Of a stretch of 25,037 bases of DNA, positions 1,666 to 17,483 are shown piece by piece. A program made the translations under genes and the position numbers. The DNA is from a virus. Taxonomy: Duplodnaviria > Caudoviricetes. Location: IMG/VR virus record IMGVR_UViG_3300037567_000988, positions 1 through 25,037 of that record, one strand, 5' to 3'. Under the pieces are notes generated by a model that ran no database searches, was not told the DNA's origin, and saw nothing but the letters and a program-made list of their open reading frames with translations. Every line of letters begins with the position of its first letter. The stretch's first letter is position 1.

Positions 1666-3936
1666 TTATCTCCTACCAAACTTTCCACGACCTTTTCGTC
1701 GAGATGGGCCTCTCCGGCCCGGTTCCACCCTGTGAGGTTTAGAAAGTTCTTTTACACTGTTAATACTTTCCATGTCGAATTCGTGACCCATACCATGGTT
1801 AGACTTCTTTGCAAGACCCCCGAATATAGATTCAGTGTCCTTTTTTGGACGACCTATCTCACCACGTGAACGCCTCTTGCCAAAGTGTCCGCTTGCCAAC
1901 TGCTCTTCAGCTTTATATTTTTGCTTTATTAGTCGGTCATCTTCAAGCCCTTGACCTCTAATAATCTTTAACACATTAGCAATAACAGGAACACCGTGCT
2001 TTTGAGCACCCCTTATTATATCGTCCGCTTCTTGATGAGGAGAGATATAATCGTCTTGACTGGAGTCACCTCTTGCAACAAGAGCAGGCCTAGATATAGG
2101 CAAACTCTTTCCACTATAGACAGACTCTTCTAGAGAAAGTCCAGCTAAGGCAAGCATCATTGCGTCTAGCCTGTGATCGCCAATAATCTTGTTATCCATA
2201 CCATATACAGGGCGATGTGTGCTGCCGCTTCTTCTTACTATAATATAGTTCATTAGCTGCTTGGTTAACACCTCGTCAGATTCAGGATAAAAGAACTTAC
2301 CGTCCTCGATGATCCTGACAGCATTTTCTACAATAAAATGCTTTCCTGGCTTCTTTAAAATAGAACCATCAATTGGATCTCTGAGCTCTACGTTAGAAGA
2401 GAAGTTAAATGATACAAGGCGGTCTTCTAGCTTAACTGTCTCCTTGTCCATCAAGGACTTGGTTGGTTTGCCTTTAAGTCTATGAGCATATAGAAGAATG
2501 TCTTCGATGATGGTGTGTCCGTAACCTTCATCGGCATAGATCCAGTCTGGCTTCCACTTGTAGTTTAAACGTATTACTTCTTCCATCCATTTCTTAGCGG
2601 AAAACTCTGAAGCAGCTACATTTATCCCCTCTAAAGCTATCCACCTTCCACTGGAAGCGGAATACCCAATGACAAAGAATTCTGTTCCTGCGTTTTTATT
2701 CCAGTCAATGCCCATACAAATAATCATATTTGCTGGGTCTGATATTCCCATACGATTTCTTAGAAACTCGTAGTTTGCTACCTGTTCGTATGTATAGTCT
2801 GCTCGTGCAGCTTGTATCCAGGATGGGCGGAAAACTCCGTATTTACTCTCAACGAACTCCGCCATGTACTCTGCAGCAAAACTTTCTTTAGTACTTTCTT
2901 TTTCTAGCTCTTCTTTAATCTTATCCCAGTGCGGAAGAACGCTTGAGGGATAGTAATCTTCTTTAAAGTCGGGCCTATCAAGACACCAAGAGTAAAACTT
3001 AGCTCTTTTTCCAATAGGTGTTGATGTTGCAAGCAACCAAACCTCTGGCTTGGTGAGTAAGATAGGTGTAATGACCTTGTCTAGAATTTCTTCTGGGATC
3101 ATGTCCATCTCATCGAGATAAATGATATCAGCTGATGCACCTCGAATAGTACCACCGCCGGAGCCATCTCCCTTTACTCCCAGACCAGAAACAAAACCTA
3201 CTATCCTTGCCCCATTAACAAACTCCATCTTAAACATAGGAGTCTTAATATATAGGTTGTCACCAGTTCCAGAGGATACTGCAGCTGTTAGCTCAACATT
3301 TCTTTTTATAAGAGCTTCTATCTCATTAAAGATGTTTATTAGCTGTGATTGGTATGGTGTAACTACCATAATGATCGGGCCTGAAAGAACTGCTTCGCCC
3401 TGAGCATCACGACCTTGCTCTACCTTAAGGTTGTAAGCATAGTGAATAAGCTTAAGTGCCATAGCAAAAGTCTTGCCGGCTCGTCGGCCTTCTCGAATAG
3501 AGGTACGAAAAGCAGTACATCTCAGCTGCTCTTTCTGATAGGGCCGAAGACTCCACTTCTCATCATCATCGCTAAATCCAAACATCAGTTCGGACCAAGC
3601 TACCGGATCTATAGTTGAAAGAAGTATCTTCTTCGCTCTTTCAAGAGGAATGTCCGATGCGATTGCTAAGTCTTTTATCCTAGCTGAAGCTCCAGCGGGA
3701 AGAGCTCTTGGTATGTAGCTGCAGGCAATTTTAAACTCTTTAACGCCAGCGCTTTTATACTTTGAAATCTGTCGTATCTGACAGTTTATACAAGTTCTGT
3801 GTACGTCGGTCCTGATGCCGTATTTATCTTTGTAATGCTCAACCAGCCTTGGGTCTGGTTTCGCGTTCGGGTCCTGGTGCTTGTAGCCATATTCGTTAAC
3901 TACAAAAAGCTTATTTTCTAAGGCTTCTATACTCAT
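1666..3936 (-). CDS. terL: Terminase large subunit (756 aa)
   Basis: Adenine-binding LRPYQ, Walker A GRRAGKT, Walker B IIYLDE, coupling motif ATSTP, RNase H-like nuclease motifs MGIDWN, YADEG and DHRLDA. Confidence 0.93.
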   Translation of the reverse strand: MSIEALENKLFVVNEYGYKHQDPNAKPDPRLVEHYKDKYGIRTDVHRTCINCQIRQISKYKSAGVKEFKIACSYIPRALPAGASARIKDLAIASDIPLERAKKILLSTIDPVAWSELMFGFSDDDEKWSLRPYQKEQLRCTAFRTSIREGRRAGKTFAMALKLIHYAYNLKVEQGRDAQGEAVLSGPIIMVVTPYQSQLINIFNEIEALIKRNVELTAAVSSGTGDNLYIKTPMFKMEFVNGARIVGFVSGLGVKGDGSGGGTIRGASADIIYLDEMDMIPEEILDKVITPILLTKPEVWLLATSTPIGKRAKFYSWCLDRPDFKEDYYPSSVLPHWDKIKEELEKESTKESFAAEYMAEFVESKYGVFRPSWIQAARADYTYEQVANYEFLRNRMGISDPANMIICMGIDWNKNAGTEFFVIGYSASSGRWIALEGINVAASEFSAKKWMEEVIRLNYKWKPDWIYADEGYGHTIIEDILLYAHRLKGKPTKSLMDKETVKLEDRLVSFNFSSNVELRDPIDGSILKKPGKHFIVENAVRIIEDGKFFYPESDEVLTKQLMNYIIVRRSGSTHRPVYGMDNKIIGDHRLDAMMLALAGLSLEESVYSGKSLPISRPALVARGDSSQDDYISPHQEADDIIRGAQKHGVPVIANVLKIIRGQGLEDDRLIKQKYKAEEQLASGHFGKRRSRGEIGRPKKDTESIFGGLAKKSNHGMGHEFDMESINSVKELSKPHRVEPGRRGPSRRKGRGKFGRR

Positions 3937-4862: not shown

Positions 4863-7800
4863 CTACATCCTGTGGTGCCCTATTGGGCTTTGAAACATTT
4901 GGTGATTTACTCTTCTCTGGGCCATGGCCATCTGTTGCCGGCGATCTTGAGCTGTACTCCTTGTACCGTAGATACGGTTTGCATTTGATGATCGATGTGT
5001 CCAAACACTGTTAGTCGATCCAAGCGTATCCAATACTAGTGCCTTGTCAAGGCTACCATAATTACCCCTTCTACGTAATCTATTAGTAACTGAAGAACCT
5101 CTTGTCGAACTCATCTTAGCAGTGTCCTCCAGCATTTCAGATAAGTAGCTGTTATGTGGAGCATTTTTTCGTCGCATAAGGATCGGATCTTGGTAATCCG
5201 GCCTGTAACCGGCATCGTTAAATCTTTTCCCAATGAAGGCTGCTTCAGTTGCAGCAGCATTTCCGTAGAAACCCTGTGCTTCTGCATTCTGCATCAAGGA
5301 GGTAGCAGACATCATCGTTGCGTTCTTAGCAATCTTGTCGATTTGCGTAAACGTATTGAAAGTAATTGTCTGCCCTGATGCTGTTGTTATATCCCTATAG
5401 GCTTGGAAGAATGGGGTTCCCCACATACCTCGATCAGCACCTTGCGAGAGCTTATTCGCTCTACTAAACATTTGCTGATCATACATTTCTAAAACGCCCT
5501 TCTTCTTGAAGGGCAGGTATGAAGCCAATCCACGCTTCAGCAGATCAACATTTATATTTCGGCCATCGTCATAAACCATACCAACAGCACGACCATAAGT
5601 TATATTGTTCGGGTCGAAAATGAGTTCGAGGTTGCTCGATCCAGAAAGAATCTGCTGTAAAGCAATTTTACCTGCGTTGGCATACGGCTGAGCTCTGTGA
5701 AAGCCACTACCTCCGGCGTGTTCGGTTTCTGGAGCATCGATACCAGCTAGGCGGAATTTGACAGCTCCTACACCTTTATCAAAACCGAAAAAGCCGTTCA
5801 ATGCACCCGCTACCCCTGCACGTTTAACAACAATTGTATCGGCGTCTTCAGCTTCTGCTCGCCACCTTCCGCTAGATAGATCTATTCTTAGTAAGTTTCG
5901 TCCTCTAAGACCTGCATACGCTTGGGTGTCTAGAACTGTTTCTACTGGTCCATCTATATATTGATGTACTGTCGACACAGCAGCTTTAGTTGAAAATAAG
6001 CTTCGAATACTGCTACTGAAAGAATGAGCATCTCCACCTGAATCTACCCTTAAGCTTCTGAGACCTTTAATGACACTTGTTTCAGGATCGAGATGCTGTG
6101 CGACATACATGAATCGGAGATACTTCTCTCTTTCTGCAAGAAGCTCTTGCTGTTGAAAAACAGCTTGTGTAGCAATTGGACCCTGATAGGGAGAGCCAAA
6201 GTCAGAGAAGTAACCTCGTTTCCTGCCAGCAACTCCACCCTCTTGCATACCGCTAAAGGGCTGAGCTTCTAGCCATCTTTTGTAATCCATAGTATGCAGA
6301 GATGCTGGGCGATCTCGATCTCCACCCCTTTGCCCTCCAGCAAACCCTACTATTCCTAGAGCTGCGGCAGCCAATCCAACTCTAGCTCCCATCCCCCGAG
6401 GAATCGGCAAGTCGGCCAAGCCTCTACGAGCTGCTGCTAACCGTGCAGCACCACCAGGAGGTCTACCCATAGCCTCTCTGGAGAGAAGATTCTGCCAACG
6501 ACCACTTGATTGTAATTGTTTGGCTTCTTGTCGGAACAATGTTTCTGGACGTCTCTCTGCATAGCGGACTGAAGCCTGACGAAGTCTCTCTGCATTTATA
6601 ATTTCTGCTTCATTACCCCGCATCCTGATAGCACCTGACTTCTCTAGGTACCTGTGTAGCCTCGCAGTTTCTTTGTCAAAATCTGCTGCTCCGTATTGTC
6701 CGGTTGACCTCATATACTCAAGTGCAGCTTCTCCACTAAAGAATGGGTTTGTTACTGGTATGTTTATAGGAGCTTTTATTCGGGCACCTTCTCTTGTTAC
6801 TTGTTCGATAGCACCAGCCTTGTAATGGCTAAACTGCCATGTAGCGGGTTTGGGAGTTCGCCCTTCTTGCCCTGCAAGAGTAATTTCTTTTGCAAAGTCC
6901 TCATACATCCTTGTCACTCTCTTGACAAGATTGCCACTCTGGATGGCGGGAGCAAGCTCTTCCTTTAGCTTACCGTATATCATGGCTTCATATAGAAGCC
7001 CACGGCCTGATTTTGCCTGCTCAAGAAACTCCTTGCCTGCAGCACTGCCAATAGATACCTGTCTAAGAGCTTCTGTACGGTCCAAAGTTCCGGTTAGAAC
7101 ACGTTCGGATAGAATATTATCTAAAGCAGCAACGTGAGGCTCTGACATGGAGAGACTCTTCGATACTAAATCCCACCTACCGCCTGTTGCAGCCTGTGTT
7201 GCGTGCTCAAGCCTCCAACTGGATTCTATTCCTAGAGAATAAAGAGGTCCACCCTTCTTCATTACCCCCAGTTCTTGCATGTAAGATTGCTGAGCCTTAA
7301 TAACGTCGATGATATCGCGGACTTCGCCTGTACCTGGGCGGGTGTGTTTGAGGTACGCCTCGTATACCCCTCTCCAGTCACCCGTTCTAGCAGCTAGAGC
7401 CTTTGCTCTCTGTACTTCAACTCCAGTCACATAGAGCATCTCAGAGCCACGCATGCTCGTTGCTGGTAGGATGTCTCTGAGCCCAGTGGCTTGCCGTAGC
7501 TGCCTGTGTAGTTGCTCCTCGTCAATCAATCCCGCAGCGTGAGCGTCTCTTGCAGCCCGCTCTAACAGCGAGATCTGGGCTCCAAATTGCTTTGACTCAA
7601 ACTGCGCGTTTGCCACCCAGATGGTATGCCCTTTTAGTTTCCGCATTAGTGCAGAATCAGGCTGTAACGCTTCCGACATAGCAAGCCGATGGGTTTTGAA
7701 GTTTTTTGCATCTACTCCAAGTTTTTTCACCTGGGCCTGCATGTAGGCATCTTGCTGAGCTAAAGTTTTTACTTTGCCTTCAGCATCAGGGAACCATGGA

Positions 7801-8222
7801 TAAGCCTCTTCTTTTATCATCTTGTAAAGCCAGGTATCATCTGACTTCAGCATCTTCATCAATTCGCTTGGCGATATGTCTTGGGAAAGACGCTCTACTT
7901 TGCCTCTCATCATGAGGACTCGCGCCGTTATAGCATCCTGCCAGCCTAGGGGCTTACCCCTCTTGCCAAGCTGTGCCGCTCTCTCCGCGAGTTCAGGAGA
8001 AGCAGCGAATTTGTCACTATAGCTAGACGTCAGCCCGAGTACATCCGACTGTCGCAAATTTTCCGCCACGGTTAGATGGGGGCGGAGGATAAACTGATCT
8101 AGCTCCCGTGTTCCAAGATTAAGTATAGAGATCTCATGGATCGCAGATATCTCCCGCATCAAGCCAAGAGTTTCTGTATCTGCGATTATGGCTTGTTGTA
8201 GTAGTGAGTGAGTACTTCCCAT
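4863..8222 (-). CDS. Large protein (1119 aa): N-terminal DEDDh/DnaQ-like exonuclease domain plus C-terminal staphylococcal nuclease (SNase/thermonuclease) domain
   Basis: ExoI IIADTETLGL, ExoII-like VANAQFE, ExoIII HVAALD. SNase motifs EDADTI, FRLAGIDAPE, QPYA, YGR, NVDLLKRGLA and RGMWG lie at about 5420-5860. Confidence 0.85.
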   Translation of the reverse strand: MGSTHSLLQQAIIADTETLGLMREISAIHEISILNLGTRELDQFILRPHLTVAENLRQSDVLGLTSSYSDKFAASPELAERAAQLGKRGKPLGWQDAITARVLMMRGKVERLSQDISPSELMKMLKSDDTWLYKMIKEEAYPWFPDAEGKVKTLAQQDAYMQAQVKKLGVDAKNFKTHRLAMSEALQPDSALMRKLKGHTIWVANAQFESKQFGAQISLLERAARDAHAAGLIDEEQLHRQLRQATGLRDILPATSMRGSEMLYVTGVEVQRAKALAARTGDWRGVYEAYLKHTRPGTGEVRDIIDVIKAQQSYMQELGVMKKGGPLYSLGIESSWRLEHATQAATGGRWDLVSKSLSMSEPHVAALDNILSERVLTGTLDRTEALRQVSIGSAAGKEFLEQAKSGRGLLYEAMIYGKLKEELAPAIQSGNLVKRVTRMYEDFAKEITLAGQEGRTPKPATWQFSHYKAGAIEQVTREGARIKAPINIPVTNPFFSGEAALEYMRSTGQYGAADFDKETARLHRYLEKSGAIRMRGNEAEIINAERLRQASVRYAERRPETLFRQEAKQLQSSGRWQNLLSREAMGRPPGGAARLAAARRGLADLPIPRGMGARVGLAAAALGIVGFAGGQRGGDRDRPASLHTMDYKRWLEAQPFSGMQEGGVAGRKRGYFSDFGSPYQGPIATQAVFQQQELLAEREKYLRFMYVAQHLDPETSVIKGLRSLRVDSGGDAHSFSSSIRSLFSTKAAVSTVHQYIDGPVETVLDTQAYAGLRGRNLLRIDLSSGRWRAEAEDADTIVVKRAGVAGALNGFFGFDKGVGAVKFRLAGIDAPETEHAGGSGFHRAQPYANAGKIALQQILSGSSNLELIFDPNNITYGRAVGMVYDDGRNINVDLLKRGLASYLPFKKKGVLEMYDQQMFSRANKLSQGADRGMWGTPFFQAYRDITTASGQTITFNTFTQIDKIAKNATMMSATSLMQNAEAQGFYGNAAATEAAFIGKRFNDAGYRPDYQDPILMRRKNAPHNSYLSEMLEDTAKMSSTRGSSVTNRLRRRGNYGSLDKALVLDTLGSTNSVWTHRSSNANRIYGTRSTAQDRRQQMAMAQRRVNHQMFQSPIGHHRM

Positions 8223-8993
8223 TTAATCGTCCAGTAATACCTCGTCAGACATTTCTAACTTTAAAGGCTCGTCGGTTTCGAGGCTGGTTATGGCTGTTCG
8301 CAGTTTTTCTATTTCAGCTAGGATCCTACTATCATTATGTGCTCCTCCCACCTTGGCTGCCCAGTCGGCTTTCGCCTTTCTCGTTTCCATCAGCTTATCC
8401 AGCCAGTTCTGTCGCCGCTTCTCAAGCTTATCTAGCATCTCGACAGCAGGGTGGAGCTTCGCTGTCTCTGCGGTTTCTCCGTGCTCGCTAAAGCCCAGGA
8501 TGTCCACCCGCATAAAATCCCTTCCCTGTCCGCTCTTATCACCCGCTGACATCACCATTAAGGATCTATTCTTATAGAGGTCGATTAGAGCTAACTCATT
8601 CACTATTGACATCTCTACAGGGTTAGCCGGGTCAACGTTTAAGTGCTCTACATACTCGATAATTTTTTGCTGCATATAGAATTTCTCAAGTATACACTCT
8701 CTGCCCATAGGGTAGTTCTCAATGTCCCCGAATTCCACTGCCCCCTTGGGATCTCTTTCTGGAATGGGACACTTGGCTATAAAAGGGCATTTCTCTGGCC
8801 CAAGACACATGATTGGGGCCACCGCGTGTAGCCCCGTCTGGATCCGGTTGATTGAGTTAACAATCCGCTGCTTTTTTTCCGGGGGTAGGCTTTCGAGATA
8901 GTTTTCGTACTCCGGCTCTATTACTGATATCTGATCTATTATCTCTTGTCTGGTTGGGACTACAGCAAGCTTTAGGGTTGTTTTATCACTCAT
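8223..8993 (-). CDS. Cys-cluster protein (256 aa), candidate terminase small subunit
   Basis: C-x5-C-x5-C...C cluster. The C-terminal HPAVEML...LMETRKAK resembles the NPA...LGLTPxSR pattern of P27-type TerS. It lies upstream of terL in the same operon. The CDS is well supported; the function is tentative. Confidence 0.6.
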   Translation of the reverse strand: MSDKTTLKLAVVPTRQEIIDQISVIEPEYENYLESLPPEKKQRIVNSINRIQTGLHAVAPIMCLGPEKCPFIAKCPIPERDPKGAVEFGDIENYPMGRECILEKFYMQQKIIEYVEHLNVDPANPVEMSIVNELALIDLYKNRSLMVMSAGDKSGQGRDFMRVDILGFSEHGETAETAKLHPAVEMLDKLEKRRQNWLDKLMETRKAKADWAAKVGGAHNDSRILAEIEKLRTAITSLETDEPLKLEMSDEVLLDD

Positions 8994-9747: not shown

Positions 9748-9795
9748 GTGGGGTTTTTAGCCCACCCCCCTTTTTTATTTAACGAGCGATTGCTC
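9748..9795 (+). promoter_or_regulatory. Cassette element copy 1 (putative phage promoter)
   Basis: GTGGG/CCCAC hairpin, CCCCTTTTTTATTTAAC-G(9784), then a GAGC-gatt-GCTC hairpin. There is no same-strand gene upstream. Confidence 0.7.
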
Positions 9796-9812
9796 AGAAA
9801 GGGGTAAGCAAC

Positions 9813-9998
9813 ATGAAAACTTATCGCATTACGTTTGAGGACGGAACCTTCTTCCATGGTGAGACATATGGAGAGATGGTTACGGAAATCATCCAGCGGT
9901 ATAGTTTGCTGTTTGTTATCTGGAGCTATGCAGACAAAAAGGCTGGCCACTGGATGATTGATGGCAAGCTGGAGATGGTGCGAAACTATATTCACTAA
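9813..9998 (+). CDS. Small hypothetical protein (61 aa)
   Basis: AAAGGGG SD-like sequence; the ORF fills the space between cassette elements 1 and 2. Confidence 0.8.
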   Translation: MKTYRITFEDGTFFHGETYGEMVTEIIQRYSLLFVIWSYADKKAGHWMIDGKLEMVRNYIH

Positions 9999-10013
9999 GA
10001 GGAAAAGGGAAAG

Positions 10014-10072
10014 CCTTGGCGCATAGCGTCAAGGGCCCTTTTTCTTTTAATGAGCACTCCATTCGTGTGCTT
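10014..10072 (+). promoter_or_regulatory. Cassette element copy 2 (terminator-like hairpin plus putative promoter)
   Basis: CCTTGGCGC/GCGTCAAGG hairpin, CCCTTTTTCTTTTAAT-G(10052), GAGCAC...GTGCTT. Confidence 0.75.
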
Positions 10073-10090
10073 TGAACAAAGGAGAAGACT

Positions 10091-10207
10091 ATGTTTAGGT
10101 ACATATTGTTCTGTATCCTCGTGCCCTACATCATTCTGGAGTGTATCTGCTTCCAGAACTTTGGGACCAGCACACCAGTGTACGACTGGTGCTGTCCCCC
10201 TGAGTAG
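10091..10207 (+). CDS. Small hydrophobic Cys-rich peptide (38 aa, MFRYILFCILVPYIILECICFQNFGTSTPVYDWCCPPE)
   Basis: AAAGGAGA SD before the ATG; stops just before the next cassette hairpin. Translated by hand. Confidence 0.7.
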   Translation: MFRYILFCILVPYIILECICFQNFGTSTPVYDWCCPPE

Positions 10208-10223
10208 GAGCGAGAGAGAGGAA

Positions 10224-10296
10224 GCCCGGTCGCGTGTGCATGCACGTGTACCGGGCCTCTTTTTCTTTAATGAGCACTCCACTTATGAGAGTGCTT
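10224..10296 (+). promoter_or_regulatory. Cassette element copy 3
   Basis: GCCCGGT...ACCGGGC hairpin, CTCTTTTTCTTTAAT-G(10272), GAGCACTC...GAGTGCTT. Confidence 0.75.
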
Positions 10297-10324
10297 TGAA
10301 TTGTTCTCTTGAAAGGAGAATATT

Positions 10325-10627
10325 ATGTTTGAAGGTCTTTTCATTCTTGGCTTGTTGGTCATCGCGATCCTGACCTGTCTTCGATGCGTACGACTTGAGT
10401 GTCGTGCCCTCAAGGCGGAGACGGAGATCGTTGATCTCCAGATCAAGGTCGAGGAGCTCCAGGCAGCACAGCCGTCCCGGGAGGCTCTCATCGTATTGGG
10501 CTTACTGGTTGGCACCTGTGAGGCCGATGGACCGTTCCGAACCCCTAATGGGAGCCCCTTCTGGGCTACGAAGCCTCTGGAGGTCTTCGTCCGGGAGCCG
10601 GATATGAACCTAGTGAAGATCAGCTAG
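10325..10627 (+). CDS. Membrane-anchored coiled-coil protein (100 aa)
   Basis: AAAGGAGA SD; N-terminal hydrophobic helix. Confidence 0.85.
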   Translation: MFEGLFILGLLVIAILTCLRCVRLECRALKAETEIVDLQIKVEELQAAQPSREALIVLGLLVGTCEADGPFRTPNGSPFWATKPLEVFVREPDMNLVKIS

Positions 10628-10652
10628 TCAACTAGCGGTCTAGAGAGAGGGA

Positions 10653-10715
10653 GCCTGGTGTGCGTGTTTAACACGCATGCCAGGCCCTTTTTCTTTTAAC
10701 GAGCAACTTACGCTC
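10653..10715 (+). promoter_or_regulatory. Cassette element copy 4
   Basis: GCCTGGTGTGCGTGT/ACACGCATGCCAGGC hairpin, CCTTTTTCTTTTAAC-G(10701), GAGC...GCTC. Confidence 0.75.
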
Positions 10716-10731
10716 AGAAAGAGAGAAGCTG

Positions 10732-10893
10732 ATGCTGAAGCTGAAGATGTTGTGGAACAGGCTGCAGAGGAACTGGCTTCCTATACTCGTGGTGGTGCTC
10801 TTGGTAGCAGTCACTGGGAGCATCTGGAAGACTCACCATGTCCATGTGGAGCGTGGTCTCTATGACTGTGATACCAGTTATCACAACCACTAG
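10732..10893 (+). CDS. Small single-pass membrane protein (53 aa, MLKLKMLWNRLQRNWLPILVVVLLVAVTGSIW...HNH)
   Basis: Purine-rich RBS (AAAGAGAGAAG), a TM segment, and a fit between elements 4 and 5. Translated by hand. Confidence 0.75.
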   Translation: MLKLKMLWNRLQRNWLPILVVVLLVAVTGSIWKTHHVHVERGLYDCDTSYHNH

Positions 10894-10914
10894 CAGATAG
10901 GAGAGACAGAGGAG

Positions 10915-10968
10915 AAAGGGTCTGGACGAAAGTCCGGGCCCTTTTTCTTTTAACGAGCAATCATGCTC
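10915..10968 (+). promoter_or_regulatory. Cassette element copy 5
   Basis: AAAGGGTCTGGAC-GAAA-GTCCGGGCCCTTT hairpin, CCCTTTTTCTTTTAAC-G(10955), GAGCA-atca-TGCTC. Confidence 0.75.
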
Positions 10969-10983
10969 TGAAGGAGGTGTCTA

Positions 10984-11292
10984 ATGGCTAACCTACAACT
11001 CGTGGCGCTCCAGCGGGAGATCGCTGAGGATATGTGCGTATGGGCTTTGCTCATGCGCCAGATTCTCAGCATCCTCAGCGAGGGCGTTGAGACCGACATG
11101 ATCCACACGAACAAAATTCAAGTCTTCGACCGAGATGGTCGCCGGCTTCAGCTTTGGTCGTGTGGAACAATCTATTATCGGGTCGATAAGACCGAGAATA
11201 GGGTCCATGTCCCTGACTCGTTTCGTGATAGCGCGAGAGCGTTGCTCACGCAGGCGAACGAGTGGGCGATCCGAGTGAACCTGGGGATCTAG
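10984..11292 (+). CDS. Hypothetical protein (102 aa)
   Basis: AAGGAGGT SD; bounded by cassette elements. Confidence 0.85.
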   Translation: MANLQLVALQREIAEDMCVWALLMRQILSILSEGVETDMIHTNKIQVFDRDGRRLQLWSCGTIYYRVDKTENRVHVPDSFRDSARALLTQANEWAIRVNLGI

Positions 11293-11311
11293 GTTCACAT
11301 CGAGGAGGCAA

Positions 11312-11389
11312 CCCGGTACACGTAGCAATACGTGTGCCGGGCCCTTTTCTTTTAACGAGCTCTCTTCGGGGATTATCCCGGAGCAGCTC
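11312..11389 (+). promoter_or_regulatory. Cassette element copy 6
   Basis: CCCGGTACACGTA-GCAA-TACGTGTGCCGGG hairpin, CCCTTTTCTTTTAAC-G(11357), GAGCT...AGCTC. Confidence 0.75.
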
Positions 11390-11404
11390 TGGAGGTACAG
11401 TCAA

Positions 11405-11845
11405 ATGACTGCACTAGAACACTTGGTGTTCCTCGTTCTCGTCAGCATCCTGCAGGCGGGTGGAACTATCGAGACCAATGGTCCCGAAATCTTCCACACG
11501 GTCAACACTGGTGGTCCGAGTGGCGCGGTAAAGCATTACTGCGTTCACTCTGGCAACCAGTATGCTCAGCAGGGTGTCAACAGAGCAATGGTTGATACTG
11601 GTTCTCGGTACAATGACGTTCGTTACGTCATGGTACTTGACGGAGCTGATGTCGGCTACTGCCTGGAAGCTGAGAAGCCAGGAGCACTCAACCGTGATGG
11701 TGACACATGGCGCTTCTTCGATGACAAGGAGCAGCTCATGATCGCCACAATGGTGGAGCAGAGTGGATTCGGTACCTGGGATATCCCGTGGGAGACCGGT
11801 TACCACCTCACCCTGCCCCTACCAACTCCACCTACGGGGGAGTAG
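11405..11845 (+). CDS. Hypothetical protein with N-terminal hydrophobic/signal segment (146 aa)
   Basis: GGAGGT SD; bounded by cassette elements. Confidence 0.85.
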   Translation: MTALEHLVFLVLVSILQAGGTIETNGPEIFHTVNTGGPSGAVKHYCVHSGNQYAQQGVNRAMVDTGSRYNDVRYVMVLDGADVGYCLEAEKPGALNRDGDTWRFFDDKEQLMIATMVEQSGFGTWDIPWETGYHLTLPLPTPPTGE

Positions 11846-11852
11846 AACCTTC

Positions 11853-11952
11853 GACAAGCTTGGGGGTGTACGTTGCAATATGGCCTACTGAAGGCTGAGC
11901 AGCGTGCACTCCCGGGTTGTCCTCCTTTTTCTTTTAATGAGTAACTATGCTC
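11853..11952 (+). promoter_or_regulatory. Cassette element copy 7
   Basis: Long imperfect hairpin GACAA...TTGTC, CCTTTTTCTTTTAAT-G(11939), GAGTA-acta-TGCTC. Confidence 0.75.
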
Positions 11953-11966
11953 TGAAAGGACAAACC

Positions 11967-12194
11967 ATGAAAGTTGTGAAAGACCTTGCTTTGTACATCC
12001 TGATGGCCTGCAGTATGATCTGCTGTATCGGCATCGGACACTGCGGTGCCTCCAACGGACTGACAACCGAGCAGGTCTCGGAATGTCAGCTGCTGCTGTT
12101 GGAGAAGGAAGTCTATGAGGCTCAGCGGAAGAAGGCGATGAGGTGGTCTGAGGACGCTGCCTACCACATGAAGAGGGCGATGCAGCAGCAGTGA
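11967..12194 (+). CDS. Membrane-anchored protein (75 aa, MKVVKDLALYILMACSMICCIGIG...)
   Basis: An AAAGGA SD places the start at 11967 rather than 11904; hydrophobic N-terminus. Confidence 0.8.
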   Translation: MKVVKDLALYILMACSMICCIGIGHCGASNGLTTEQVSECQLLLLEKEVYEAQRKKAMRWSEDAAYHMKRAMQQQ

Positions 12195-12203
12195 CTGTGA
12201 TTG

Positions 12204-12267
12204 GGGCCGGCGCATTTCGATGCGTCGGCCCTCCCTTTTTATTTAATGGTCTCCATGAAGTGAGACT
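12204..12267 (+). promoter_or_regulatory. Cassette element copy 8
   Basis: GGGCCGGCGCAT-TTCG-ATGCGTCGGCCC hairpin, CCCTTTTTATTTAAT-G(12248), GGTCTC...GAGACT. Confidence 0.75.
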
Positions 12268-12279
12268 AGAGAGGAGGTC

Positions 12280-12483
12280 ATGATGACCTTTATACAATTG
12301 TCGGTCCTCGTGGTGGCGGCGGTTAATGTCGCTATCTGCTCGGTGTTGTTATATGTTGTGTGGGAGCAGCGAAAGCTGTCTCAGCGCATCAGCCGAGTCA
12401 ATGGGCGAGTCGATCGCAACTGGCGTGATTATATGTCAGAAGCGGACGAGGATGCTCAGATCACAAACGGCAGCATCTGCTGA
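12280..12483 (+). CDS. Single-pass membrane protein (67 aa)
   Basis: AGGAGGT SD; N-terminal TM segment followed by a basic amphipathic helix. Confidence 0.85.
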   Translation: MMTFIQLSVLVVAAVNVAICSVLLYVVWEQRKLSQRISRVNGRVDRNWRDYMSEADEDAQITNGSIC

Positions 12484-12500
12484 TTGTTGATTGAGGTGTT

Positions 12501-12579
12501 GGTCCCCGGCGTGTACGTTTTTACGTGCACGCCTGGGGCCCACTTTCTTTTTCTTTAACGGTTCTCATGTGGACGAACT
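12501..12579 (+). promoter_or_regulatory. Cassette element copy 9 (precedes a non-coding unit)
   Basis: GGTCCCCGGCGTGTACGT-TTTT-ACGTGCACGCCTGGGGCC hairpin, CTTTTTCTTTAAC-G(12560), GGTTC...GAACT. No SD or ORF follows. Confidence 0.75.
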
Positions 12580-13780
12580 GAAAACGGCGAAAGCTGTATA
12601 TAACCACATGTAGTAGAGTCGAAAGGCTTTGGTTCTATACCTCTGTACGAGGTCCGAAAGGGGCAAGTACAGGGGCGAATATGTAGTTGTTAGAGGTCGA
12701 GACATGTTCTCGATATCTGAGGTCAACCTTAATAGGAAAGTTGTATAACTCCTGAACAGGCCAACTCAGAGAAAGACGTAACTGATACCTCGTAACGCCT
12801 ACTCAGCTTAGGTTGAGTAGCCGGTTGGTCGTAGCTGCCAGATGCGACCATACCGGGCCCCGATGCTCTCTGGGAGAGCTTAAGGGAGGTGTGACTTTGG
12901 GTAACCTTGCGGGACTACTGTAAAAGGTAGTTGGAGCTTGGAGACCCTTGGCGGAAAGTAGGAGTGGGTCCGAAGCCCTTCTCATGCAAACTACTGGAAG
13001 CCAGGGTGTTCTCCAAGAAACCCTGCCCCTCGTAGCTGTCAGAAATACGAGATCACATCTTCAGGGAGTACCATCCTCTGGTTAACTTACTTACCAGATG
13101 GACCGGTCTCGGGAAGGGGTGCCGCCTTAGTAGCGAATTGTTTCGTGTAACTCTGGCTGAGTCTGCAGTGGAGATTGGTGTTAGCCGATCAAAACTGCAG
13201 ACAAGGCTGGGGTCTATCACTTACTAAGTTCTAAGGCCAGGTAGAGAGGCGAGACGCTTGCCAGACTTACCTGACGGTACCTAGACCGAAAATCTAGGTT
13301 GAGGTTGACTGTAACCTTATCCAACAAAACAGTCGTCAGCGAGTTTCGACTTGCTGACTATGGCACTGTCCCGGTGTCATGAAAGTTCGTAGATATGGGA
13401 CGCTGCTCCACACAGCGTAGGTGTCAAAGCCGGGTTCATCTCCACGGTTATTAGCATCTGGTTGCAAGTGCTTTTTGGTACTTGCATTAAGGGCGTTTCC
13501 ACCTGCAGATAAGGTGGTGAGTAGATCTCCCCTACAAGAATGAAGCACGGAAGGACGAATCTGGTCATTTCGTGTGGATTCAACCTGCCTAGGGAGGCCC
13601 CAACCTCTGGGCGCTATGTAAGAGACTTGGTACATCTCATCATAGCAAGTGAGGCCTTAAGAGTTCTAGTGGACTCTTGCTCCTTAAGTGGAGCGTTAAA
13701 GAGCGGAAAGGTATGTGCCGTTCTTGAAATATAAATGCAATCCACCTTTGTCTGGGGGGCCCTTCGGGGTCCCCCAGGCA
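12560..13780 (+). ncRNA. Putative large (~1.2 kb) highly structured non-coding RNA, family not recognised
   Basis: No credible ORF. Continuous hairpins with GAAA/UUCG loops and G-U pairs that work on the + strand. Long-range helices 12721-12732/13299-13310 and 12885-12894/13053-13062. Starts at a cassette element and ends at a strong UUCG hairpin. Confidence 0.75.
13749..13780 (+). terminator. Strong GC hairpin without a U-tract (3' boundary or processing/stabilising stem)
   Basis: TGTCTGGGGGGCCC-TTCG-GGGTCCCCCAGGCA. Confidence 0.5.
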
Positions 13781-13884
13781 CCTTAGCCTGTCGTGGGATC
13801 TGATATGGGATCAGATTCATTTGATCTTGTATGAGATCTCACGGCAGGTCCTACCAACCAATGAAAGAAAAGGAGAATGAAGTT

Positions 13885-14793
13885 ATGTACTTCATCAAGC
13901 GAATGATACTGTGGGTGCTCTCAATTCTGGGAGTGGCCTTCTTCATGGTCTGCACTCTGATCTCGACGGTTCTTGGTAACAAGAACTCGACGGCGAAGTG
14001 TGGGAACTGGATGCGGGGACAGTGGTACCTCTTCATCGAGGAGCCGACAGTGGTCCTCCACTGGCTCTCGGGCTGGCGGAGTGGCCTCGTGTCTCGCTTC
14101 AACGGCTGGAGGGCTGCTCGTGCCGAGAAGAAGGCTGCAAAGCTGAAGCTGAAGGCTGAGGCTGCAGAGGCTGCAAAGCTGAAGGCAGACAAGGCAAAGG
14201 AGGCGAAGAAGGCCAAGGGACATTGGTTCCAGCGCTTCGTCTGCTGGAGCGGCTTGCTGTTCCTCGATGCGCTTGAGGCGAGAAATCGTCGAGTTCTCTC
14301 GGACTATGAGTTCGTGGGAATGCGCATGCCGGATGGCGAGTACATTCCGGTGCAGCCTGGTCAGATGCCAGAGGCGGTGTCTTCGGACATTGCTGATGGT
14401 GACGAGGGTGGCGACTGCGATGAGGAGTTCCTCATCGAGACCGAGCCGGTGGATCCCTTGGGGGACACCGACGAGGTGCTGGCAGTCGTGACTCTGCACG
14501 ATGAGGATGAGGGGCCTTTCGGGCTCCCCACCGAGACGGACGAGATGCGGACGATGCTTGAGCAGGTAGCTCAGGTCAGTGAGTTTCGACTCGCTGGCAT
14601 GAGTCTGACCTGGCAGGAGCAGCTGAAGCTCTGGTCTCACATCTGCAGAGACCGGAACAAGAGCGATCGGAGTAAGCTCGCCGTTCAGGAAGCTCTGACG
14701 AAGGAGGTCGAGAGCTGGACTGGCGACGAGGGTAGTGCTCAGCAGTCTATCCGGGCTAACCTGAGCATTGGTCGCTACCCCGAGTTCCCGTGA
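13885..14793 (+). CDS. Membrane-anchored protein with Lys/Ala-rich linker and acidic domain (~302 aa)
   Basis: An AGGAG SD 9 nt before ATG 13885 favours this start over 13831. N-terminal TM segment, AEKKAAKLK-type repeats and a D/E-rich middle. Confidence 0.8.
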   Translation: MYFIKRMILWVLSILGVAFFMVCTLISTVLGNKNSTAKCGNWMRGQWYLFIEEPTVVLHWLSGWRSGLVSRFNGWRAARAEKKAAKLKLKAEAAEAAKLKADKAKEAKKAKGHWFQRFVCWSGLLFLDALEARNRRVLSDYEFVGMRMPDGEYIPVQPGQMPEAVSSDIADGDEGGDCDEEFLIETEPVDPLGDTDEVLAVVTLHDEDEGPFGLPTETDEMRTMLEQVAQVSEFRLAGMSLTWQEQLKLWSHICRDRNKSDRSKLAVQEALTKEVESWTGDEGSAQQSIRANLSIGRYPEFP

Positions 14794-14990
14794 GTTGCGG
14801 GGACTGTGGTGCTGAGACTTACCTTCGGAAGGAAGGTAAGGATTGGTACCGGGTGTGTCGAGGCTGTGGAGCGAAAGCGAAGCAGTCTCGACACAATCCT
14901 CCATCGGTGATTGAGTTCACTGGTGGAGGTGTTCATGGTGCTTGCCTGCCTTGCGGTTGCGCCATTGAGCAGTGTGAATGCAAGGAATAG
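14790..14990 (+). CDS. Small Cys-rich, Zn-ribbon-like protein (66 aa)
   Basis: GTGA overlap with the upstream stop; CxxC...CxxC...CxxCxC...CxC. Confidence 0.7.
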   Translation: MSCGDCGAETYLRKEGKDWYRVCRGCGAKAKQSRHNPPSVIEFTGGGVHGACLPCGCAIEQCECKE

Positions 14991-15010
14991 AGGGGGCTAG
15001 ATAGTCCCTG

Positions 15011-15095
15011 GTGTGTGGGAGCGGGGCCTTCGGGCCCTGCTTCCCCACATCCCCTTCTTTTTATTTAGTGAACTTGTGCGCTCAAGTATGAGTTC
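15011..15095 (+). promoter_or_regulatory. Cassette element copy 10 (TTTAGT variant)
   Basis: GGGAGCGGGGCC-TTCG-GGCCCTGCTTCC hairpin, CTTTTTATTTAGT-G(15070), GAACTTGTGC...GTATGAGTTC. Confidence 0.7.
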
Positions 15096-16305: not shown

Positions 16306-16490
16306 GCCCGTACTAACTGAAGGAGTATGTGGAAGCTGACCTGGCGTTCTTGTTCGCAAGAGTGTTAACAAAGCTACGGTCCAGGAGAATAGGTATACGG
16401 AGTAGTGGAAGTGGTACAACCCTGCCAGGGGGCAGCGTCTTCGGAGGGTAATGAATTGATGTCAGGGAAAGGATCCCGACCCTGAGAGAC
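16305..16490 (+). ncRNA. Putative small structured RNA, copy A
   Basis: Occupies its own cassette. Shares 5' GGCYCGTAC, GAAGCWGACC, a 46-nt core (16413-16458, 43/46 identical) and GAAAGnnTCCCGAC with copy B. Confidence 0.6.
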
Positions 16491-16523
16491 CACCCCCCTC
16501 TTTTTATTTAACGAATACTATTC
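16462..16523 (+). promoter_or_regulatory. Cassette element copy 14
   Basis: TCAGGG...CCCTGA stem, CCCCCCTCTTTTTATTTAAC-G(16513), GAAT-act-ATTC. Confidence 0.7.
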
Positions 16524-17212: not shown

Positions 17213-17400
17213 GCTCGTACCATGAATGAGAGGAATGCTGAAGCAGACCGAATGCTTGTTGGCTAGAGCGACAACATTTTTCGGTATGGAGTACATGACC
17301 ATAGAAGCGGAGATCTTTGCATGCGGTACAACCCTGCCTGGGGGCAGCGTCTTCCGAGGGTAACGAATTGGTAATGGTGAAAGCGTCCCGACTCGGAACC
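17212..17400 (+). ncRNA. Putative small structured RNA, copy B
   Basis: Core 17325-17370 is 43/46 identical to 16413-16458. GTACCATG...CATGCGGTAC closing stem. Confidence 0.6.
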
Positions 17401-17483
17401 CCCTACCCCCTTTTTATTTAACGACGATTGTAGTCTAGCCAATAGAGGAGAGACTACCAGGCGAAAGCTGAAAGGAAATCGTT
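17400..17483 (+). promoter_or_regulatory. Cassette element copy 17 with a structured leader enclosing the RBS
   Basis: CCCCCTTTTTATTTAAC-G(17423). GACGATT pairs with AATCGTT immediately before the ATG; internal GTAGTCT/AGACTAC stem and GC-GAAA-GC loop. Confidence 0.7.

Follow-up and report, generated by a model that had tools for sequence, protein, structure and literature searches.

Positions 12560-13750 of an uncultured phage fragment very probably encode a functional RNA of approximately 1190 nt, in which purifying selection acts and natural variation spares the structure of the + strand, and which is apparently transcribed, judging from records in marine RNA sequencing runs. The 25-kb fragment, found in marine metagenomes, is referred to below as the window (the whole 25,037-nt stretch of DNA that was analysed) and belongs to a record that is 19% complete. 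The RNA belongs to no Rfam family tested, nor to GOLLD, ROOL, or OLE, and kilobase-sized phage RNAs are already known from phage K. Table 1 lists the features of the RNA and its surroundings.

Table 1. Features of the window, with the lengths of RNAs found at the same position (slot) in related phages
Feature	Position	Strand	Basis or remark
Large terminase	1666-3936		Domain and family search matches
Conserved 256-aa gene, putative small terminase	8223-8993	-	Synteny anchor
Terminator-type hairpin closing the upstream cassette (67-aa ORF, 12280-12483)	12501-12541	+	Sequence
T-tract/TAAYG element, candidate phage promoter, start at or near G12560	12544-12560	+	Repeated before each early cassette
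Large structured non-coding RNA	12560-13750	+	ORF-free, folded, RNA-run records, strain conservation, fold-sparing variants
Predicted 5' domain, ~835-840 nt	12560-13399	+	Closed by helix 12564-12579 / 13384-13399
Nested helices in 5' domain	12721/13310, 12748/13069 (6 bp), 12885/13062, 12937/13017	+	Predicted
Hairpin-loop motif, two copies (region 12826-13051)	12826-12850, 13029-13051	+	
16-nt word identical in the same-slot RNA of L003	13267-13282	+	Strains vary at 13279
3' hairpin-rich region with hairpin-sized indels between strains	13400-13745	+	Strain X20 comparison
14-bp GC-rich UUCG hairpin, terminator type without U-tract	13749-13780	+	P 0.98
29-bp near-perfect hairpin just before ribosome-binding site	13787-13850	+	Predicted fold
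302-aa ORF: N-terminal membrane helix, Lys/Ala-rich segment, acidic tail	13885-14793	+	
Single-subunit two-barrel (eukaryotic-RdRP / YonO-like) RNA polymerase candidate, 1052 aa	17819-20977	+	DxDGD
Slot RNA lengths (nt)			L003 977, L005 467, L065 463, L095 ~458, L029/L008 ~555, L058 723
Slot RNA lengths (nt)			L059 435, L087 402, L111 ~880, L115 940, L122 ~717
Slot RNA lengths (nt), shorter contigs			L004 433, L061 1054, L052 ~1195, L053 ~865, L116 893, L037 >1230

The large terminase has its best cultured matches, at approximately 30% identity, in Moorella phage MTATph1, Acinetobacter phage ME3, and Bacillus phage 0305phi8-36, and the complete genomes of related phages are 133-162 kb. The anchor gene matches no Pfam or PHROG family and is labelled a putative small terminase from its position upstream of the large terminase; its sole bin match is a Gammaproteobacteria MAG, which may be a mis-binned phage contig. 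Between the two terminase-region genes lies a gene for a 1119-aa protein (4863-8222, - strand), kept in relatives, with a staphylococcal nuclease (SNase) domain at residues 822-934. Small cassettes facing the opposite way to the anchor gene lead to the polymerase candidate; a T-tract/TAAYG element stands at the start of each, and most end in a hairpin. The cassettes on this strand look early, and the small proteins of six of them have a strongly hydrophobic stretch at the N-terminus. Strains X11, X19, and X20 differ in sequence at 11940-12230 or just upstream, so early cassettes are swapped between strains. In addition, two non-coding copies of 98 nt, 77% alike, sit just upstream of T-tract/TAAYG sites at 16406-16503 and 17318-17415.

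An earlier, sequence-only reading had proposed that the stretch from 12560 holds no credible ORF and starts at the invariant G of a repeated element, and both proposals agree with the present results. The longest + strand ORF within the RNA (13540-13734) is 64 aa, has no ribosome-binding site, and is shifted in frame by a 2-nt deletion in strain reads, and position 12560 is the G of a T-tract/TAACG copy of the element, which is listed 17 times in the window. This copy does not fit a sigma-70 site, and the element is a candidate promoter for the polymerase candidate. In strain X20 the sequence differs upstream of 12543 while the element and the RNA are the same, which places a cassette boundary there. 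The description of the RNA as occupying its own cassette is thus accurate for the start, at the element and boundary, but not for the end, where no U-tract terminator closes the cassette and the RNA runs into a membrane-protein gene. Because no further T-tract/TAAYG element occurs between 12560 and 15058, the RNA and the 302-aa ORF share a likely transcription unit. The hairpin at 13749-13780 is likely the 3' end of the RNA or a barrier; a 20-nt core of it is identical to the terminator hairpin of a stand-alone slot RNA in the relative L053, and the RNA-run records extend to 13755 at most. The hairpin that follows, which we take to resemble the RNase III sites of phage T7 early RNA, is a candidate RNase III-type processing site. 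Within the 3' region, 29 nt at 13461-13493 are missing from strain X20, which has 30 extra nt at 13615-13621; these hairpin-sized swaps mark a modular periphery.

Four marine RNA runs from three studies yielded 23 records on 20 kb of this phage, nine of which align over 123-215 nt with 0-4 differences, while the other 14 are partial matches of 33-42 nt with loose ends. All nine long records fall within 12796-13755 and none in the downstream ORF or elsewhere in the 20 kb. The runs were chosen for containing the RNA region, are unstranded, have a depth of 2-2.8, and may include DNA carry-over; their contigs do not reveal ends, strand, or level, and no record covers 12560-12795. When one record per run is granted to this selection, the remaining five still lie within 1.2 of 20 kb (P ~9e-7). 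Of the 33 substitutions in strain X11, the RNA has only 3 although it accounts for 1231 of the 2071 covered bases (59%, P 2e-9), so it is more strongly conserved than the ORFs that flank it.

The sequence-only suggestion that selection acts on the + strand RNA was borne out by variants that spare the + strand fold (P ~0.01) and not the - strand fold. The 18 variants comprised nine RNA-run rows and ten DNA-strain rows with one in common, many of them from single low-depth contigs, with 41 lower-support strain rows left out. Together they break 2.3 ensemble-weighted pairs compared to 5.3 expected (P 0.008), and the ten DNA-strain variants alone break 0.02 compared to 1.4 expected (P 0.012); the - strand control showed no effect (7 pairs broken, 7.4 expected). 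Under a nested-helix model fixed before the variant data, one of the 18 variants disrupts a pair (P 0.003), a pair in which other strains show a compatible change of the partner base. For the minimum free energy (MFE) structure alone the effect was not significant (3 of 18 break pairs, 5.35 expected, P 0.10). The tolerated changes are mostly A-U or G-C to G-U, swaps that are neutral in the + strand RNA only. Changes on both sides of the pair 13141/13223 occur in different samples and are unphased.

The folding comparison proposed with the original reading gave a mixed outcome. The RNA folds with a z-score of -8.55 (0 of 20 shuffles as good), but in equal-length windows it scores -6.6 compared to -9.5, -8.6, and -7.0 for flanking coding cassettes and +0.8 to -3.4 for core genes; folding energy does not single out the RNA because neighbouring coding cassettes fold as strongly. 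The small early cassettes from 9780 to 15049 (+ strand) are unusually structured, also inside ORFs (z -7 to -9.5 per 1.2 kb), with local peaks at 11201-11400 (z -9.3) and 14801-15000 (z -11.1). All six hairpins named previously are present, five with mean pair probabilities of 0.95-1.0; the sixth, AGAGTC/GGCTTT, is part of the MFE structure but lies below the 0.6 probability cut of the helix list. Long-range pairing in the 5' domain is predicted by the folding models. The outer helix, absent from the earlier reading, has a probability of 0.98 and encloses approximately 835 nt. Of the four long-range helices that reading had named, all found in the sequence, 12937/13017 alone dominates the ensemble (P ~1.0; the other three ~0.23, 0.1 or less, and 0.4), and the long-range duplexes are not stronger than the best ones in shuffled sequence. 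Positions 13060-13062 are claimed by two of these helices, which limits the 12748 helix to 6 bp, and a fold made to include all nested helices has an energy just 1.4 kcal/mol higher than the MFE. Duplex strength at the 5' end was set aside as support, as 30 of 100 shuffles were as good. In two strains, one change makes the loop of the second hairpin-loop motif match that of the first; the motif pattern was found in only two IMG/VR contigs, both copies of this phage. A loop-loop scan of the MFE structure gave no kissing candidate, and a palindromic kissing loop around 13276-13281 was rejected, the site being paired in both models.

Database searches likewise upheld the failure to match the RNA by eye to GOLLD, ROOL, introns, RNase P, or tmRNA. 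The recommended cmscan against Rfam gave no match to the RNA at gathering scores and seven chance-level matches at E up to 10. Single-model searches with GOLLD (RF02032, E up to 10) and ROOL (RF03087, also negative by cmscan; the control genomes of the single-model search were without ROOL) found nothing in the RNA, as did the OLE Rfam model, and the protein downstream of the RNA has no Pfam family. The group I intron model (RF00028) found no match in the RNA while positive controls scored, and no gene is interrupted. Rfam and ARAGORN found no group II intron, RNase P, tmRNA, 6S, or SRP match in the RNA, ARAGORN found no tRNA or tmRNA in the 25-kb window (a 19% complete fragment), and the RNA has no CUGANGA hammerhead core. 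By eye, some short words resemble 16S rRNA, RNase P, and group I cores, but Rfam did not bear this out. No DNA similarity was found by blastn against 50,697 phage records, and BLAST against five related records gave a best E of 0.018 over 27 nt, within a coding region. The 16-nt word of Table 1 occurs in eight viral contigs (two from this phage, one L003, and five in open frames of at least 132 aa), and a relaxed pattern in 12, none both new and non-coding by frame length or context. No alignable homologues were found beyond near-identical strains, which leaves this RNA without family-level covariation. As for the proposed new class of phage RNA, the RNA does lie outside Rfam, but the class is a conjecture, the slot RNAs of related phages being unlinked to it by sequence or covariance model. 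Neither the RNA nor its slot is described in the literature searched, which consisted mostly of open-access journals without supplementary motif tables.

A search with the anchor gene recovered 29 + 69 + 1 loci from three collections, and 30 distinct relatives with at least 5 kb of upstream DNA were compared. In 11 of the 30 relatives, the slot between the putative small terminase and the YonO-like polymerase gene holds an ORF-free cassette of at least 398 nt that runs from a T-tract/TAAYG-type element to a membrane-protein ORF; the remaining 19, mostly of a second clade, were looked at less closely. The element in front of the slot RNA is the same as in the window; in L052 it lacks the hairpin upstream. 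Slot sizes range from approximately 150 to >1300 nt, the close relative L140 (73% anchor identity) having only ~150 nt, and some members of the second clade have different leaders of 550-700 nt. Fold z-scores of 15 slot RNAs range from -2.4 to -12.6. Inside groups the slot RNAs are colinear over 430-900 nt and keep their structure through compensatory change, as double changes show: 13 of 44 pairs in L004/L005/L065/L095 (0 of 500 shuffles, slid controls three or fewer; four sequences, with the structure derived from the same four), including a covarying 6-bp bulge-loop pseudoknot; 65 of 240 in L115/L116/L111; and 44 of 189 in L052/L053/L061, where the covariation term of the consensus fold is unfavourable (+3.96). 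Words shared among 13 slot groups were not clearly above shuffles, profile HMMs linked no groups, and pairwise alignment outperformed shuffles for just two pairs, L061-L052 and, weakly, L037-L122. A covariance model of this RNA just 3' of the 16-nt word (R1) placed the matching site of L003 at E 7.9 (rank 34 of 41), and a model of the L004/L005 group (R2) found nothing in this RNA. With no cross-group homology by words, profiles, or the two covariance models, the slot RNAs are best described as positional counterparts. The only tie between this RNA and those of relatives is the 16-nt word common to L003, for which the chance of exact sharing is ~3e-4 per pair by our own arithmetic; the flanking structure did not score as homologous. 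In most relatives the slot RNA runs directly into a ribosome-binding site. In L053 it has its own terminator, after which a new promoter element precedes a different small ORF, and in L061 the RNA aligns with that of L052 while the ORF matches that of L004; RNA and ORF can thus be uncoupled.

Several further structured stretches were observed in these phages. Rfam scans of the related phages found only tRNAs, in L122 and L129; the latter is an unrelated phage whose tRNA cluster (600-1000, - strand) includes a structured-looking gap of 400 nt between tRNAs that matches no Rfam family. In L008 (10480-11720, + strand), and equally in L009, a second ORF-free folded stretch of ~1.2 kb lies downstream of the polymerase gene (z -7.1 / -8.5) and is unrelated to this RNA by blastn. 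The slot RNA of L058 contains group I-like P3/P7/P8 words by eye (7500-7620, - strand), with no Rfam intron match at E up to 10. In the sister clade, L039 (~7040-7700) and L093 (~6400-7010), both on the - strand, have ORF-free leaders of 600-660 nt with words in common by eye. Early cassette leaders of that clade also carry hammerhead-like cores on the - strand (L040 at 9309, 7934, and 6153; L041; L086, four copies; L088-L090; L047/L101 at 7195), one of which scores 24.9 bits (E 0.088) with Rfam Hammerhead_II, under the gathering score; early genes in the sister clade are possibly ribozyme-punctuated.

The 302-aa protein encoded downstream matches no Pfam or PHROG family and has four homologues in a large protein database, three of them at 58-74% and probably sitting behind close homologues of the RNA. 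It is also related to the slot ORFs of L087 (E 2e-6) and L059 (0.006), where the leaders, at 402 and 435 nt, have a third of the length found here. All 14 translated slot loci (polymerase-bearing and deep branches) have a membrane-helix ORF behind the RNA, and these proteins form several families with little or no mutual similarity. The polymerase candidate has no Pfam, PHROG, or PDB sequence match and no cultured-phage match by tblastn; its atlas feature matches carry PF05183 RdRP (score 0.95-0.96), and the DxDGD motif is kept in four of four aligned relatives. The polymerase profile was detected in 10 distinct phage sequences, all 10 of which have a slot RNA of at least 398 nt, while four of the five other records searched lack the polymerase, two of these being complete genomes of the other clade. 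As this co-occurrence follows a quick tree, the cases are not independent.

There are several potential explanations for an RNA of this kind. The one we favour, holding it as a whole mechanism with about as much doubt as belief, is a stable stand-alone ornate phage RNA that serves as a shape-based decoy or scaffold, ROOL/GOLLD-like but a member of neither family. Transcription would start at the T-tract/TAAYG element (~G12560), probably by the phage's YonO-like polymerase, and the transcript would fold into a 5' domain of ~840 nt and a variable 3' region. It would then be parted from the mRNA, through pausing or termination at 13749-13780 or else through a cut within the 29-bp hairpin (13787-13850), outlast the mRNAs, and accumulate, with its bulk shape and not a conserved active site as the basis of its action (self-assembly, or sequestration of host proteins for RNA binding or RNA decay). 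A catalytic or ligand-binding role is unlikely because sequence is lost across relatives while shape is held within groups, following criteria set out in PMC5737381, and poor conservation across relatives is more in keeping with a scaffold or decoy than with a ribozyme or riboswitch. Self-assembly and decoy activity are possible by likeness to ROOL and GOLLD. The main rival, which we consider rather unlikely, is a giant cis-acting 5' leader that tunes the stability or translation of the membrane-protein mRNA and has grown by hairpin accretion. Neither a promoter element nor a U-tract terminator separates the RNA from the ORF, the slot RNA of most relatives adjoins the ribosome-binding site of a membrane-protein ORF, and homologous ORFs have leaders of 402 and 435 nt in a slot that varies from ~150 to >1300 nt, all as expected of a leader. 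However, the RNA of L053 ends with its own terminator, RNA groups and ORF families are reassorted in L061, the RNA-run records lie on the RNA and none on the ORF, and two strong hairpins stand between the RNA and the ribosome-binding site in this phage.

It is also conceivable, although quite unlikely, that the stretch consists of a patchwork of separate hairpins or small RNAs within a generally structured region, present in libraries only through nuclease resistance. The equally structured flanking cassettes, the hairpin-sized indels between strains, and the lack of cross-group homology are consistent with a patchwork, which would nonetheless have to accommodate an RNA more conserved than its flanking ORFs, structured neighbours that yielded no RNA-run records, a single promoter element with none internal, colinearity of relatives' slot RNAs over 430-900 nt inside groups, and a searchable module (the hairpin-loop motif) not found apart from this phage. 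A role as the ribonucleoprotein partner of a phage protein appears improbable, whether with the membrane protein, as in OLE/OapA, or with the YonO-like polymerase, as a 6S-like regulator or template. The downstream proteins fall into several scarcely similar families and L053 has no membrane protein behind its RNA, which weakens the argument from a membrane-helix ORF in 14 of 14 translated loci and from the precedent of OLE and oapA, which co-localise and bind (PMC12054373). Similarly, the presence of slot RNAs of at least 398 nt in 10 of 10 polymerase-bearing sequences, set beside two complete other-clade genomes without polymerase, points to the polymerase as partner, but the co-occurrence follows the tree, L140 lies outside the polymerase comparison, and YonO itself is DNA-dependent according to PMC5467207. 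Least probable by far is a degenerate intron, mobile element, or self-cleaving ribozyme: the size suits group I/II introns, hammerhead-like cores occur in other-clade cassette leaders, and group I-like words can be picked out by eye in the RNA of L058, but no Rfam intron or ribozyme matched even at E up to 10, there is no CUGANGA core, no gene is interrupted, and no endonuclease or reverse transcriptase lies alongside.

A broader and doubtful proposal concerns a clade of aquatic phages of 130-160 kb that encode a YonO-like polymerase. Their genomes would reserve one slot for a giant RNA of 0.4-1.3 kb that keeps its folding, its pseudoknots, and a high abundance even as its sequence is replaced, acting as a fast-evolving arms-race weapon or as a partner of the polymerase. 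RNA-only machines of a new class would then include this 1.2-kb RNA as one of their largest, and rapid sequence turnover, if true, would explain why homology-based screens miss such RNAs. Related phages provide a natural size series at one locus (~150, 400, 460, 555, 720, 900, 1050, and 1200+ nt), and since the slot RNAs can all be made by in vitro transcription, how common cage formation is among large natural RNAs is directly testable.

Known systems share some features with the favoured stand-alone RNA and differ from it in others. Small phage non-coding RNAs have been surveyed (PMC10914365). Staphylococcal phage K produces two abundant intergenic RNAs of unknown function, lnc001 and lnc002 (635 and 1,154 nt), one of them from its own early promoter, according to PMC9241854. 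The size of the RNA, presented in the sequence-only reading as unusual, therefore has a precedent in lnc002, while being approximately twice that of an average ROOL; unlike this RNA, the phage K RNAs lie beside tRNA genes in Kayvirus, and the two share no DNA similarity. OLE is similar as a large structured RNA adjoining a membrane-protein gene but is chromosomal, ~600 nt, and highly conserved with a conserved partner (PMC12054373), whereas neither RNA nor partner is conserved across the relatives here. YonO of SP-beta (PMC5467207) is a DNA-dependent single-chain polymerase related to eukaryotic RdRPs, and an SP-beta operon that it transcribes opens with an unannotated non-coding RNA; YonO transcribes late genes, whereas the cassettes of this phage look early. 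ROOL (RF03087), averaging 581 nt (PMC5737381, PMC12286853), is likewise a large multi-helix phage-associated RNA with few highly conserved nucleotides, and one slot-RNA group has a covarying pseudoknot; ROOL has six multistem junctions as well as three pseudoknots in ~580 nt, and multistem folds are predicted for the ~1190 nt of this RNA. In contrast to ROOL, this RNA is about twice as long, matches no model, has no tRNA in the window, and is preceded by a phage-type element, and no conserved structure was found across the slot RNAs of relatives. GOLLD (RF02032; PMC12286853) shares a length >800 nt, phage encoding, marine occurrence, and a variable part beside a stabler part; this RNA differs in having no model match, no tRNA island nearby, and no counterpart found of the universally conserved 3' region of GOLLD. 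As outlined in PMC12286853, only a handful of large ornate bacterial and phage RNAs are known, two of which build RNA-only nanocages and none of which has a known function; to these few, the present study adds a 1.2-kb candidate with signs of both expression and selection.
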